From positions 1 through 52,483 of the forward strand of contig JAVRCJ020000047.1 of the NCBI GenBank assembly GCA_034530875.2: a stretch of DNA of 52,483 bases, in the 5' to 3' direction. Position numbers and translations under genes: made by a program. A model generated the notes under the pieces. The model did not search any database. It saw only the letters and a list, made by a program, of their open reading frames with translations, and was not told where the DNA came from. Within the stretch, counting starts at the first letter, position 1. The number at the start of each line of letters is the position of its first letter. Shown here one piece after another: positions 24,754 through 31,311 of this stretch. Source of the stretch: Nostoc sp. DedSLP01 (GTDB taxonomy: Bacteria > Cyanobacteriota > Cyanobacteriia > Cyanobacteriales > Nostocaceae).

Positions 24754-24883
24754 ATTGACATCACACAACAGTTGTAGTTAAAAGTTTAGGAGCGATCGCC
24801 CCTTCATAACCAAAGTACAGTAAAAAATAGAGCATAGGCGTAGCCCGTCGCAGATATCGCTTACTTATTTCAAGTTCCAAACA
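24754..24883. repeat. Left copy of ~130-bp HIP1-containing direct repeat (includes an SDR5-like insert at 24835-24855)
   Basis: Aligns with 27916-28047: 36/46 identical in the left arm, 28/28 in the right arm, middle segment inverted. Confidence 0.85.
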
Positions 24884-25004
24884 GCAAACTTCAAGTTCAA
24901 AGGCTCAAAAGCTGAATTTACAGGCAATACTTCGGTCTTGCTGCAATTGAAATCGTAGGTTAACAGCAAAAGTCAGTTAAAACTAACTCAAATTAACTAA
25001 AATT

Positions 25005-25062
25005 TAGTCCGTTTCAACGGACTTAGGCTATTAGCCTCGGAATTGATTCCGAGGCTAATAGC
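25005..25062. repeat. Tandem hairpins (REP/MITE-like)
   Basis: AGTCCGTT-TC-AACGGACT hairpin, then perfect 17-bp arms GCTATTAGCCTCGGAAT-TG-ATTCCGAGGCTAATAGC (25027-25062), downstream of the small minus-strand gene. Confidence 0.75.
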
Positions 25063-25099: not shown

Positions 25100-25348
25100 C
25101 TACTTGGTTTTTTCGCTTGTTGGACGCACTAAAGTTTTAACTAAACCCGTAATTGCAACAATCACAGAGGCAACTCCGGCGATGGATACTGAAGTCAAAA
25201 TTGCCACTGCAAGGATGATTTCACCCGGACTATCCCCATTCCGCATCCAAGTAGATGGATTTTCTACTAATGTTGGCGAGGCGGGGATTAATTGCGAAGT
25301 TTGGGTGGTTTGATTAGCGTTGATTGGATTTGTTAAAGCAGTTTTCAT
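25100..25348 (-). CDS. Small membrane protein (82 aa), divergent from the STAND gene
   Basis: ATG 25348 with AGAGG SD; polar N-terminus, then a long hydrophobic stretch SPGEIILAVAILTSVSIAGVASVIVAITGLV and a basic tail. Confidence 0.65.
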   Translation of the reverse strand: MKTALTNPINANQTTQTSQLIPASPTLVENPSTWMRNGDSPGEIILAVAILTSVSIAGVASVIVAITGLVKTLVRPTSEKTK

Positions 25349-25426
25349 GGCTGAACCTCTTCTAAATCTTTCTATGCAAATCGTATTTCTGACCAAAGAA
25401 GAGGAGATTACTAAGAAATTGAGACA

Positions 25427-25456
25427 AAGTGGAAAGAAAGTAGAAATTAAGTAGAA
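25427..25456. promoter_or_regulatory. Three direct repeats AAGT(G/A)GAA at 11-bp period
   Basis: Copies at 25427-25434, 25438-25445 and 25449-25456 in the divergent intergenic region. Confidence 0.5.
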
Positions 25457-25482
25457 TCGAAAATAAATCTCACAAGCTGTCT

Positions 25483-27867
25483 ATGGAATGGGCTGATTTT
25501 CTAGCCAAAGAAGCTGCTATTAATAGCTTATCGCCAGAGCAAACGGCAGCTTTTGTAGAGCGTTTAAAAACCGAAAACTCAGGGAAGAGTGAGGCAAAAC
25601 TTGCCAGCGAATTAAACATTGGTGCGGCTGCTTTCAAAAAGCGGATGGCTGAAGTGTATGAAAAATTCGCCAAGAGTTATCCTGAATTAGCCACTTCTAA
25701 CAGTCGCGGTAAGCTGGAAAAGTTACGGGCTTGCCTGACAGCGAAATATAATGGCGGGCAAGATGCCCAACCAACAATTAAAGAGATTCATCACAATATT
25801 CCGCCTGCTGTTCCATTTGAAAAATTTGTGGGACGTGAGACGGAACTAGAAGAACTGCACCAGAAATTACAAACATCTCGGCAAGTTGCAATTGTAGCTG
25901 TGGCGGGTATGGGTGGAGTTGGCAAAACAGAACTAGCTACCCAATACGCCAAACAGCATTTGCAGAATTATCAAGGTGGGGTTTGCTGGTTATCAGCACA
26001 GGGAATTGATATCGAAATTCAAATTCTCAGATTTGCCGAATTAAAATTTAAACTCATTGCACCGGATGATTGGGAATTAGCAGATAGGCTGAGATACTGC
26101 TGGCAGAATTGGCAACAAGGTGAAGTGCTGCTTGTGTTTGATGATGTCACCGACTACAAAAAACAGGTTCAGCCTTATCTACCACCAGAATCATCCCGGT
26201 TTAAAGTGTTGCTAACAACCCGCTTGGGGTTTGATAGAACTTTGCCGCAATTACCTTTAGGTGTTCTCAAACCATTGGCGGCGATGAAGTTATTAAAATC
26301 ACTGGTTGGTAGAGAACGGCTGAAAACCGAACCTTGGATAGCGAGAAAAATTTGTAAATTCTTGGGATATTTGCCTTTGGCGTTAGAGTTGGTGGGGCGA
26401 TATCTGGATACAATGCCAGATTTGTCTTTAGAAAAACTGCTGAAGCGGCTAGAGAAAAAGCGACTGGAACACGAAGCAATAGCTAAGGCTAACCCATTGA
26501 TGCGTTATGAATACGGCGTTGCTGAAGCTATTGCATTGAGTTGGGAACAGTTAGATGAAAATGCACAAGGTGTCGGCTGTTGGCTGAGTTTGTATGCTTT
26601 AGCTGATATTCCTTTTTCTGTTGAGGCGATAGAAGATGACGATGCACAAGAATTCTGGGAGAAAGCTATAGCTGAGTTGCGAAAACTGCATTTAATACAA
26701 TGGCAAAGTAAAGGAATTTATCGTTTACATCCACTGATTCGGCAATTTCTCCAAATGAAGTTGGATGAGTCAAGTAAGGCGGATGAGGTGAAAACTGCTT
26801 TTGTAGCGCAGATGGTAAAGGTGGCAAAGAAAATTCCTCAACAGCCTAACCGTGAAGATATTTTCAACCTCAATCCCTTTATCCCACACCTTGCAGAAGT
26901 TGCAACCCACCTATCCCAATATCTCAGGGACGAGGATTTAATTTGGTCTTTAACAGGCTTAGGTTGGTTTTATCAAGGTCAAGGACTTTATCAGCAAGCA
27001 GAACCTTGGTTACAGCAGTGTGAAAAAGTTACTAAAAATCGTCTTGGTTTAAAACATCCCTATGTCGCCACTAGCCTGAACAATCTCGCAGCACTTTACG
27101 ATTCCCAAGGACGCTACAGCGAAGCCGAATCCCTGTATCTGCAAGCTTTGGAACTGAGTAAACGCTTACTGGGAGACAACCATCCCGATGTCGCCATTAG
27201 CCTGAACAATCTCGCAGCACTCTACTCTTTTACAGGACGCTACAGCAAAGCCGAACCCCTGTTTCAGCAAGCTTTGGAACTGAGTAAACGCTTACTGGGA
27301 GACAACCATCCCTATGTTGCCACTAGCCTGAACAATCTCGCAGCACTCTACTCTTCTACAGAACGTTACAGCGAAGCCGAACCCCTGTTTCAGCAAGCTT
27401 TGGAACTGAGAAAACGCTTACTGGGAGACAACCATCCCGATGTTGCCACTAGCCTGGACTATCTCGCAACACTCTACTCTTCTACAGGACGCTACAGCCA
27501 AGCCGAACCCCTGTTTCAGCAAGCTTTGGAACTGAGAAAACGCTTACTGGGAGACAACCATTCCGATGTTGCCACTAGCCTGAACAATCTCGCAGCATTC
27601 TACTCTTCTACAGGACGCTACAGCGAAGCCGAACCCCTTTTTCAGCAAGCTTTGGAACTGAGTAAACGCTTACTGGGAGACAACCATCCTGATGTTGCCA
27701 CTAGCCTGAACAATCTCGCAGAAGTCTACCGTTCTACAGGACGCTACAGCGAAGCTGAAACCCTGTTTCAGCAAGCTTTGGCAATTTGTAAGCAGACTTT
27801 AGGTGTAGATCATCCAAATACAATTACGGTTTGGAGAAATTATGCAAGCTTTTTCTTTTTATTTTAA
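25483..27867 (+). CDS. STAND NTPase: N-terminal HTH-like domain, NB-ARC, TPR repeats
   Basis: FVGRETEL, Walker A GMGGVGKT, Walker B LLVFDDV, LLTTR, GYLPLAL, YRLHPL; C-terminal 42-aa TPRs; N-terminal SEAKLASELNIGAAAFKKRMAEVY helix-turn-helix-like segment. Confidence 0.9.
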   Translation: MEWADFLAKEAAINSLSPEQTAAFVERLKTENSGKSEAKLASELNIGAAAFKKRMAEVYEKFAKSYPELATSNSRGKLEKLRACLTAKYNGGQDAQPTIKEIHHNIPPAVPFEKFVGRETELEELHQKLQTSRQVAIVAVAGMGGVGKTELATQYAKQHLQNYQGGVCWLSAQGIDIEIQILRFAELKFKLIAPDDWELADRLRYCWQNWQQGEVLLVFDDVTDYKKQVQPYLPPESSRFKVLLTTRLGFDRTLPQLPLGVLKPLAAMKLLKSLVGRERLKTEPWIARKICKFLGYLPLALELVGRYLDTMPDLSLEKLLKRLEKKRLEHEAIAKANPLMRYEYGVAEAIALSWEQLDENAQGVGCWLSLYALADIPFSVEAIEDDDAQEFWEKAIAELRKLHLIQWQSKGIYRLHPLIRQFLQMKLDESSKADEVKTAFVAQMVKVAKKIPQQPNREDIFNLNPFIPHLAEVATHLSQYLRDEDLIWSLTGLGWFYQGQGLYQQAEPWLQQCEKVTKNRLGLKHPYVATSLNNLAALYDSQGRYSEAESLYLQALELSKRLLGDNHPDVAISLNNLAALYSFTGRYSKAEPLFQQALELSKRLLGDNHPYVATSLNNLAALYSSTERYSEAEPLFQQALELRKRLLGDNHPDVATSLDYLATLYSSTGRYSQAEPLFQQALELRKRLLGDNHSDVATSLNNLAAFYSSTGRYSEAEPLFQQALELSKRLLGDNHPDVATSLNNLAEVYRSTGRYSEAETLFQQALAICKQTLGVDHPNTITVWRNYASFFFLF
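27055..27810 (+). repeat. Six near-identical 126-bp coding tandem repeats (TPR units)
   Basis: Units begin CAT(C/T)CC at 27055 + n x 126; protein unit HPDVATSLNNLAALY...KRLLGDN. Confidence 0.92.
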
Positions 27868-27915: not shown

Positions 27916-28047
27916 ATTGACGCTAGACAACAGTTGTAGCTTCAAGCTTAAAAGCGATCGCCTGTAACTGCAAATGGCTACTGCTCTATTTTTCACTGTA
28001 CTTTAGAGATGAAGGAGCGATCGCTTACTTATTTCAAGTTCCAAACA
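27916..28047. repeat. Right copy of ~130-bp HIP1-containing direct repeat
   Basis: HIP1 at 27954-27961 and 28017-28024; see 24754-24883. Confidence 0.85.
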
Positions 28048-28075
28048 CAAAATTTTAACTTCTGAAAATAAATTT

Positions 28076-28330
28076 ATGCGAACAGTACCAATTCAATTAC
28101 CAGAAACAGTATTTTCAGCACTTCGGAAAAATCCAGAAGAATTTATCCAAGAAATGCGAATTGCCGCAGCAGTTAAATGGTATGAATTAGGCGACATCTC
28201 ACAAGCTAAAGCAGCAGAAATAGCTGGACTAACTCGTGCTGAATTTATTAATGCTTTATCTCGCTACCAAGTAGATTTTATGCAATATACTGCCCAAGAG
28301 TTAGCCGAGGAACTGGCAAATGTCGATTAA
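28076..28330 (+). CDS. UPF0175-family putative antitoxin
   Basis: 84 aa; EMRIAAAVKWYELGDISQAKAAEIAGLTRAEFINAL HTH pattern. Confidence 0.85.
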   Translation: MRTVPIQLPETVFSALRKNPEEFIQEMRIAAAVKWYELGDISQAKAAEIAGLTRAEFINALSRYQVDFMQYTAQELAEELANVD

Positions 28331-31050: not shown

Positions 31051-31311
31051 ATGGGAATAGATGATTTGTTTAGAAATATAGCTGGTGGCAGGCAGAAACG
31101 ACGCGATGAAGAGTGGGATAATCGCGATCGCTCCCAATACAGATATCGCGACAATGACGACGAAGACGAAGACGAAGACCGCGAATACAGATATCGCGAT
31201 AATGACGACGAAGACGAAGACGAAGACCGCGAATACAGATATCGCCGCAATGACGACGAAGGCCGCAGGTACAGATCTCGCCGTGACGACGAAGACGAAG
31301 ACCGCGATTAA
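31051..31311 (+). CDS. Small low-complexity Asp/Glu/Arg-rich repeat protein
   Basis: Strong SD AGGAGGT before ATG; 48-bp tandem unit encoding YRYRDNDDEDEDEDRE. Confidence 0.7.
   Translation: MGIDDLFRNIAGGRQKRRDEEWDNRDRSQYRYRDNDDEDEDEDREYRYRDNDDEDEDEDREYRYRRNDDEGRRYRSRRDDEDEDRD

Follow-up and report, generated by a model that had tools for sequence, protein, structure and literature searches.

Organization of the Divergent Gene Pair

The cyanobacterium Nostoc sp. DedSLP01 carries on contig JAVRCJ020000047.1 of its 8.6-Mb genome a divergent gene pair, which is analyzed here within a window of 52,483 nt, i.e., the whole stretch of DNA under study. One of the two open reading frames (ORFs) encodes a STAND protein of 794 aa, in which a helix-turn-helix (HTH) head is followed by an NB-ARC module and an array of tetratricopeptide repeats (TPR), while the other encodes a small membrane protein of 82 aa, counted from its ATG; an alternative TTG start at 25396 would extend it to 98 aa. 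Both start codons are separated by a spacer of 134 bp (25349–25482) that holds three phased boxes. These two genes, their spacer and the positions of the boxes had been proposed in an initial annotation and have all been confirmed by ORF and sequence check (Table 1).

The STAND Protein and its Sensor

The 794-aa protein is a STAND of the NB-ARC (AP-ATPase) clade, as the module (69.6 bits in Pfam at a cut-off of 23.5), its motifs (with LHP as the MHD-like one) and a C-terminal repeat sensor with seven TPR_10/TPR_12 stretches are all present. The NB-ARC parts of its relatives are under constraint, with a ratio of nonsynonymous to synonymous substitution rates (omega) of 0.20–0.25. Regarding the head (residues 1–92), no Pfam match at cut-off has been obtained. 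A profile of 21 diverse heads leads to LuxR-type PDB chains (best ChrA, E 0.001), and the AlphaFold model of the 92 residues is all helical at a predicted local distance difference test score (pLDDT) of 86. Structural alignment of this model to NarL has given a Z of 7.1 and a root-mean-square deviation of 2.4 over 64 aligned residues, tied with Spo0A and sigma-4, and the best Foldseek hit, region 4 of the extracytoplasmic function sigma factor SigL, stays below significance (E 0.14). The head of one relative (L074) passes Pfam Sigma70_r4_2, and Atlas feature matches of the head to HTH_VMAP-M9 (PF26355) at 0.85–0.86 have been taken as leads only. Based on the profile matches and the alignments of the model, the annotated HTH-like segment is, as modeled, an HTH of either the NarL/LuxR or the sigma-4 kind. 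In a single scan of the viral collection with a close-clade alignment, no relative of the head has been found.

The sensor differs among relatives in length as well as in sequence. Full-length relatives (21 genes) range from 794 to 1174 aa and rise in steps of ~42 aa, and across their 102 repeat units the positions 3, 6, 13, 16, 28, and 35 have shown a proportion of nonsynonymous differences (pN) of 0.33–0.69 versus a synonymous one (pS) of 0.04–0.41, as calculated from pooled pairwise counts rather than from a site model. Near-identical, length-variable repeats with few hypervariable sites have been described for fungal immune NLRs (PMC13449251; for this and all further articles cited, statements refer to the accessible parts of the text). 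The TPR sensor thus appears to evolve in the manner of an immune receptor, which fits a role in conflict.

The Small Membrane Protein

In 30 aligned sequences of the small protein, the motif W-x3-G-x-S-P-x-E-I-I-L-A precedes the hydrophobic stretch, with G38 and S40 being invariant. The stretch is the only one of its kind (19-residue windows above 1.6 over residues 41 to 75) and is followed by a basic C-terminal tail; AlphaFold has placed one helix at residues 41–73, at low overall confidence (mean pLDDT 63). The omega of the small gene is 0.27 overall and 0.16 for residues 29–75 (29 sequences), whereas four of the five other frames have given 1.2–1.6 and the mirror frame, which shares third positions, 0.31. 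According to these ratios, the small ORF is under purifying selection as a coding sequence. The gene is whole in 76 of 79 frames, but the loci were picked by that gene.

A profile search of 1.84 billion representatives has yielded 43 matches at the 50% cluster level, most of them 55–115 aa long, and no match to a curated family, including those of known small membrane toxins and type IV pilins, has been obtained in Pfam, NCBIfam, PADLOC, or PHROGs, in which short families are easily missed. A prepilin-like reading of G-x-S-P-x-E is disfavored, as Pfam has given it no support and a helix cap is the simpler reading; the position behind the conserved G is occupied by Y, D, N, T, Q, S, or E, presumably unlike in a prepilin site. 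Comparison of this SPxEIILA family with the NPLxW-type partners found in L110, L113, L114, and L166 (L numbers denote loci) has given an hhalign probability of 5% at an E of 0.0075.

Conservation of the Pair

Retrieval by the small protein has provided 79 loci. One of them lies at a contig edge, 78 have been scorable, and in 74 of the latter the small gene faces the HTH gene at a distance of 104–279 bp. The co-occurrence of a divergent SPxEIILA-type ORF with phased repeats, which the initial annotation had proposed to examine, is seen in 73 of these 74, and the NB-ARC P-loop in 68. The STAND frame ends before 500 aa in 10 of the 74, and three of the four unpaired loci retain remnants of a deleted STAND. 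Within the genus, the small gene has been detected in 53 and the head in 86 of 90 genomes; named homologues belong mostly to Nostoc and related heterocystous genera.

With a wider alignment, members of the small family have been detected in 34 genomes out of the 401 of this class. The pairing has been examined from the side of the small protein in 30 loci, i.e., 29 fetched ones and one from the window's own genome (L304/L305 and L312/L313 are near-copies). An HTH-like-headed gene lies opposite in 27 of the 30, 24 of these with a P-loop or STAND match and three without. The 25 heads that were clustered fall into five groups; 11 of them share homology with the XssQ head (search of 25 sequences, E 2e-15 to 3e-3), and one group of seven is what we take to be HTH_VMAP-M9. 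In L306, the gene opposite the same small-protein family combines an XRE-like head with GUN4 and lacks an ATPase.

Phased Boxes and Promoter Geometry

The phasing of the boxes is unlikely to arise by chance: when the spacer was shuffled 5000 times with dinucleotides preserved, not one such triple, defined as three 8-mers that differ in no more than one column and have a period of 10 or 11 bp, was obtained, and of 2816 regions upstream of long ORFs in this genome, 3 hold a comparable triple. The looser core [AG]GT[AG]GA appears as a phased triple once in the whole genome, namely in this spacer, and neither a second phased triple nor a strict pair of this box has been found elsewhere in it; therefore the target seems local. 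Conservation of the repeats among relatives holds for the phased core GT(A/G)GA and not for the full word, as only 9 of 40 distinct genus spacers retain the octamers unchanged at all three sites. The spacer as a whole diverges by 0.088 per site, versus ~0.2 at synonymous sites.

Taking into account 28 loci of the 30 picked for evident arrays, the distance between the array and the small-gene ATG has a median of 74.5 with a standard deviation (SD) of 17, versus a median of 68 and an SD of 38 for the distance to the STAND ATG. A TAnnnT word lies on the small-gene strand 42–44 nt from the nearest box in six of seven GTAGA loci (shuffle mean 0.57), in which a non-consensus word occupies the −35 slot of the small gene, and in the CTGAC clade an extended −10-like word has been found 32, 42, 52, or 62 nt from the boxes, i.e., in 10-nt steps, in 15 of 17 loci. 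A 100-bp insertion in L075 has displaced the boxes from the STAND gene and not from the small gene, and the spacers of close relatives differ in length mostly by ~10 or 21 bp. The spacing between boxes and hexamer on the small-gene side is that of an activator-dependent promoter and, as far as can be judged from sequence, favors activation of the small gene. The opposite strand carries a −35/−10-like pair of the STAND gene within boxes 1 and 3, found in a scan at chance level, and one relative (L048) reads TATAAT at the −10. This overlap, which the initial annotation does not mention, makes self-control plausible, and the STAND probably controls its own promoter as well.

Heads and Boxes Across Cyanobacteria

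The head has been detected in 92 of 251 genomes of the class and, in 32 proteins scanned, sits on NB-ARC, NACHT, NPHP3_N-like, and AAA_35 bodies that end in TPR, WD40, HEAT, or NCH2. In a survey that proceeds outward from 82 heads (<70% identity, 250 bp upstream), a 10/11-bp periodic tract precedes 32 heads at p ≤ 0.05 and 22 at p ≤ 0.01; a periodic score of at least 16 is reached by 21 of the 82, versus 50 of 2806 genome controls, and a small hydrophobic divergent ORF accompanies 28 of the 82, versus 149 of 2766 controls. By clade, tract and small ORF occur with 14 and 12 of 30 heads and with 13 and 13 of 21. Box classes defined by regular expressions have missed evident arrays (e.g., L169, L191, L118), and their counts are hence undercounts. 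The box word tracks the head clade, being GTAGA, GTATA, or CCCTAG in that of the window and CTGAC(A/T)T, at a 10-bp period, in a second one, and all nine GTAGA loci have K at residue 53, which is not the case for any of the 23 loci with a different box. The partners of the head comprise several unrelated small families, including CyanoTRADDas_TM, and a few DUF559-like nuclease or DUF4258-like genes (below cut-off); in L111 and L156, a head with CCCTAG boxes lies opposite such a DUF4258-like gene, which in L111 is followed by a PLD-like gene.

In the window's genome, all three genes with this head (contigs C47, C3, and C13) face a small hydrophobic gene. The paralogous head on C3 (G000:C3:173445-173711; L001 3054-6237; 40% identity) sits on an ATPase of 483 aa, behind which WD40 is encoded by a gene of its own, and faces a CyanoTRADDas_TM gene across phased GTAGA/GTATA-like boxes. 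The third one (G000:C13:135395-136216) sits on a 1215-aa STAND and has a distant member of the same small-protein family opposite, 231 bp off, with a periodic score of 13 that is not significant.

Neighboring Features and Tandem Paralogues

The features of the locus are collected in Table 1. The copy in the window lies away from the usual site of the unit (described below) and is bracketed by degenerate direct repeats, so that it may have moved. Behind it, a lone UPF0175 antitoxin-like gene without toxin partner occupies 28076–28330 (+), and a presumably PIN-like gene is found on the corresponding side of the STAND in L195, L208, and L210; the site behind the STAND thus seems to receive toxin-antitoxin insertions. 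Further downstream, an 86-aa ORF at 31051–31311 (+) is built from tandem acidic/arginine-rich repeats. In L196, an insert 1 kb upstream of the STAND replaces the small gene and contains a different hydrophobic ORF of ~58 aa (by eye), on the same strand, and a hairpin.

Table 1. Coordinates of the divergent gene pair and its surroundings in the window.
Feature	Position	Strand	Evidence or remark
Degenerate direct repeat bracketing the two-gene unit, left copy	24754..24898	+	Blocks of 47 and 43 nt that match the right copy at 79% and 88%, at a distance of 3162–3164 bp
Two palindromes just beyond the small-gene stop	25006..25062	.	Sequence scoring; the first scores terminator-like on the − strand
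Small membrane protein gene, 82 aa	25100..25348	-	P/T/Q-rich N-terminus, W-x3-G-x-S-P-x-E-I-I-L-A, hydrophobic helix, basic tail
Shine-Dalgarno-like AGAGG of the small gene	25356..25360	-	Sequence
−10-like hexamer TACGAT of the small gene	25380..25385	-	Genus alignment; variants alter the middle two letters only
−35 slot of the small gene, non-consensus ATCTCC	25403..25408	-	Sequence; 17 nt from the −10; similar word there in distant members
Three phased boxes AAGT(G/A)GAA, predicted operator of the HTH head	25427..25456	+	Starts at 25427, 25438, 25449; 11 bp apart
Sigma-70-like STAND promoter TGGAAA-16-TAGAAT, inside boxes 1 and 3	25430..25457	+	Weak; 1 found, 1.0 expected by chance
HTH-NB-ARC-TPR STAND gene, whole, 794 aa	25483..27867	+	ORF, Pfam
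N-terminal NarL/LuxR- or sigma-4-like HTH head, residues 1–92, recognition helix 48–65	25483..25758	+	Profile and AlphaFold (pLDDT 86)
NB-ARC module, residues 118–331	25834..26475	+	Pfam; P-loop, Walker B, and LHP motifs intact
TPR array, 126-bp (42-aa) repeats, ~90% alike mid-array; sensor with hypervariable positions	26926..27855	+	Pfam, repeat analysis
Degenerate direct repeat bracketing the two-gene unit, right copy	27916..28062	+	Pairs with 24754..24898

A tandem paralogue of 588–630 aa has been observed 3–6 kb behind the STAND in L082, L083, L090, L196, L198, L201, L205, L206, L210, L211, and others, and not in the window's genome. Its head is joined directly to a helical domain, the nucleotide-binding domain being missing, its recognition helix is altered, and it has one box and no small gene. 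The helical/winged part shows an omega of 0.26 (19 copies), and the paralogue is a candidate decoy, paired sensor, or inhibitor.

Comparison to Known Systems

The only tested cyanobacterial precedent is XssQ (Slr5058) of Synechocystis PCC 6803, the N-terminal HTH of which binds single or tandem boxes AAGTTNNAC in electrophoretic mobility shift assays, and which activates nearby genes of sulfated-polysaccharide synthesis (glycosyl- and sulfotransferase; PMC8205485); its output is not a defense effector. Both are cyanobacterial STANDs with an N-terminal HTH, and XssQ-homologous heads face the same small family in 11 of the 30 loci. XssQ differs in being a NACHT-NCH2 protein with an XRE-like head under control of XssS/XssR and in the absence of a hypervariable TPR. 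The window head has shown no homology to that of XssQ (hhalign probability 0.3), nor is any detectable between the full proteins, and the 794-aa protein is accordingly not of XssQ type.

AfsS, the target of AfsR in Streptomyces coelicolor, is a very small protein. At a promoter whose −35 is poor, AfsR binds a pair of 11-bp direct repeats and activates afsS, and its order of DNA-binding domain, NOD, arm, and TPR matches that of the 794-aa protein (PMC10936776). The two systems differ in that the AfsR head is of the OmpR type plus BTA (SARP) and its box overlaps the −35, whereas here a 92-aa NarL/sigma-4-like head is combined with boxes further upstream; moreover, the AfsR target is not a divergent membrane cargo. 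Membership in the large SARPs has been rejected at 119 bits to NCBIfam AfsR versus a cut-off of 1430, with the match limited to the NOD (residues 104–435). For MalT of Escherichia coli, likewise a STAND activator, ligand-induced oligomerization leads to cooperative binding at multiple sites, and STAND activators are kept in check by protein inhibitors (PMC10427625). MalT differs in its C-terminal DNA-binding domain and in sensing maltotriose, and MalT/LAL membership has been dismissed as well (29 bits versus 537 in NCBIfam), as the 794-aa protein ends in TPR repeats.

On the side of defense, Avs proteins are counted beside bNACHT among the bacterial NLR-like proteins. Cyanobacteria are rich in bNACHT, for which HTH-type N-termini have been listed as possible transcriptional adaptors (Kibby et al., bioRxiv 10.1101/2022.07.19.500537); the tripartite plan of effector, STAND, and repeats is alike, whereas members that have been tested rely on enzymatic or killing domains, which they either contain or recruit, and a divergent small gene or operator is not described in the accessible parts of that work. 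Fungal NB-ARC-TPR NLRs resemble the 794-aa protein in their repeat pattern, with cell-death domains or amyloid motifs as outputs and not a DNA-binding head (PMC13449251), and in BASS pairs an amyloid motif is common to the NLR N-terminus and its Bell-domain neighbor (10.1101/2020.01.06.895854); here, the head is a predicted folded HTH and the 82-aa partner a predicted single-helix protein. A survey of sigma factors lists r4_2-NB-ARC-TPR proteins (PMC11119718); neither operator nor small partner is described in the accessible text of this survey, of Kaur et al. (2020, 2021), or of 10.1101/2020.01.06.895854. Searches of open-licence PMC and bioRxiv texts have returned no paper on the head, the boxes, or the small-protein family; such architectures may appear in tables that supplement Kaur et al. 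and Kibby et al. Taken together, the feature is real and family-wide, and its mode of action is most likely that of AfsR or XssQ, while it belongs to neither group.

Proposed Mechanism and Alternative Readings

As the best overall explanation, which we hold with a confidence modestly above even, the 794-aa protein would be a ligand-switched activator of the divergent gene for the small membrane protein, its likely effector. Following the examples of MalT, AfsR, and XssQ, the STAND ATPase would sense a probably foreign ligand via its TPR array and undergo a nucleotide switch and oligomerization, the oligomerized head would bind the three phased boxes, and RNA polymerase would be recruited to a small-gene promoter that lacks a consensus −35, with the boxes located from about −54 to −83. 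That the STAND activates the small gene is the part that sequence comparison renders likely. More weakly, occupation of the boxes may cover the −35/−10 of the STAND gene itself and thus limit its expression, and the small protein may act at the membrane, slowing or killing the triggered cell of the filament. A defense role of the output is tenable, at somewhat less than even confidence.

Several points weigh against this explanation. Regarding the pairing of head and boxes, relatives altered at recognition-helix residues 47–54 retain unchanged boxes, so that a tight co-change of helix and box is not seen at short range, and the match at long range, including K53, may, according to a tree, reflect shared descent. 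Within the genus, the boxes are conserved no better than the remaining spacer (0.91–0.995 versus 0.958). Periodic tract and small hydrophobic ORF are weakly associated per locus (15 of 32 versus 13 of 50, Fisher p 0.06), and two head clades are mostly devoid of both (1 and 1 of 8; 4 and 2 of 23). The box classes, the hexamer patterns, and the 30 array loci were chosen after inspection, and kin are not independent. As regards expression, none of the RNA runs on record contains the locus, and four runs presumed to be RNA have yielded only contigs of relatives that span the entire stretch. The 145-bp insertions of L287 and L290 sit behind the −10 of the STAND gene and do not discriminate between the promoters, and L196 (G071:C85) has lost the small gene, yet its boxes have grown to six perfect 11-bp units, so that boxes matter also without the small gene. 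As to defense, the PADLOC 2023 library has returned no defense-system match, with generic TPR and P-loop hits only (best Avs4, E 0.04, confined to the P-loop), so that the 794-aa protein is not placed among the Avs/bNACHT systems, the precedents XssQ and AfsR govern polysaccharide and antibiotic genes, and, of the 22 loci mapped (six of 28 large loci were left out as not anchorable), 19 have the unit behind an FHA-domain gene, which in most cases is followed by gcv or further housekeeping genes; an endonuclease V gene is also among the usual neighbors. The NLR-like circuit of the initial annotation has therefore been upheld in part, namely in the conserved pair and boxes, in the HTH head and in the coding selection on the small ORF, where none of the three refuting outcomes accessible to computation has occurred, as well as in a geometry that favors activation of the small gene and in a sensor that fits conflict, while the missing PADLOC match and the housekeeping neighbors speak against it.

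These last points would be accommodated by the same wiring without defense, in which the STAND reads an envelope, metabolic, or symbiotic cue and the small protein adjusts a membrane complex or takes part in signaling between cells of the filament. The sulfated-polysaccharide targets of XssQ (PMC8205485), the afsS target of AfsR (PMC10936776), the stable chromosomal site by FHA, endonuclease V, and gcv genes, and the GUN4 fusion in L306 that dispenses with the ATPase are in line with such a function. A hypervariable, copy-number-variable TPR array is more typical of an arms race, though, and so are the patchy presence, the frequent breakage, and the nuclease- or conflict-linked genes that occupy the same slot in other members, and we regard this non-defensive function as rather unlikely.

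Quite improbable is a second alternative, according to which the boxes are solely an autorepression operator and the small gene is transcribed independently of them, its product inhibiting the STAND, in the way MalY acts on MalT, or anchoring it in the membrane. The hexamers within boxes 1 and 3 and the six boxes of L196, which fit self-control of the STAND promoter, would be explained thereby, and protein inhibitors do hold STAND activators (PMC10427625). Distance and phase of the boxes are, however, fixed to the small-gene hexamer and not to the STAND start. Moreover, one small family lies opposite five head types and several ATPase types, in one case opposite no ATPase at all, and unrelated small families lie opposite the same head, which is hard to reconcile with one binding surface; as the cargo stays constant while head, box word, and ATPase are swapped, a transcriptional output explains the pairs better than a binding partner. 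That the repeats are slippage by-products of an AT-rich promoter, in a pair that descent or co-transfer, and not any functional link, has kept together, is very improbable: the unexceptional conservation of the boxes in the genus, the perfect expansion in L196, and the bracketing direct repeats would agree with it, but not the shuffles and genomic controls, the distinct box words of equal period in different head clades, the low divergence of the spacer relative to synonymous sites, or the reciprocal pairing across the class.

Implications

Returning to the ligand-switched activator with the small membrane protein as its effector, the recurrence of this layout across cyanobacteria suggests defense via gene activation instead of a fused enzyme. 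Extended to the whole family, it would amount to a widespread cyanobacterial NLR immune pathway with transcription as its output, in which hypervariable STANDs, through exchangeable HTH heads, act on head-specific phased operators and a tiny membrane protein arrests or kills the triggered cell; we put this forward tentatively and consider it possible rather than probable. As the effector would be made only on induction, it would be absent from the cell until the receptor fires.

Many cyanobacterial NLR-like proteins have an N-terminal HTH to which no output has been assigned, and the locus gives a concrete circuit for them, comprising a predicted operator, a predicted target promoter, the candidate specificity residue K53, and an unnamed conserved cargo family. 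Should the cargo prove to be an effector of death or dormancy, this would constitute an immune logic from receptor via transcription to micro-effector that has few bacterial precedents. Even otherwise, the pairs would provide targets for a large class of cyanobacterial STAND regulators, together with sets of orthogonal head-box pairs.

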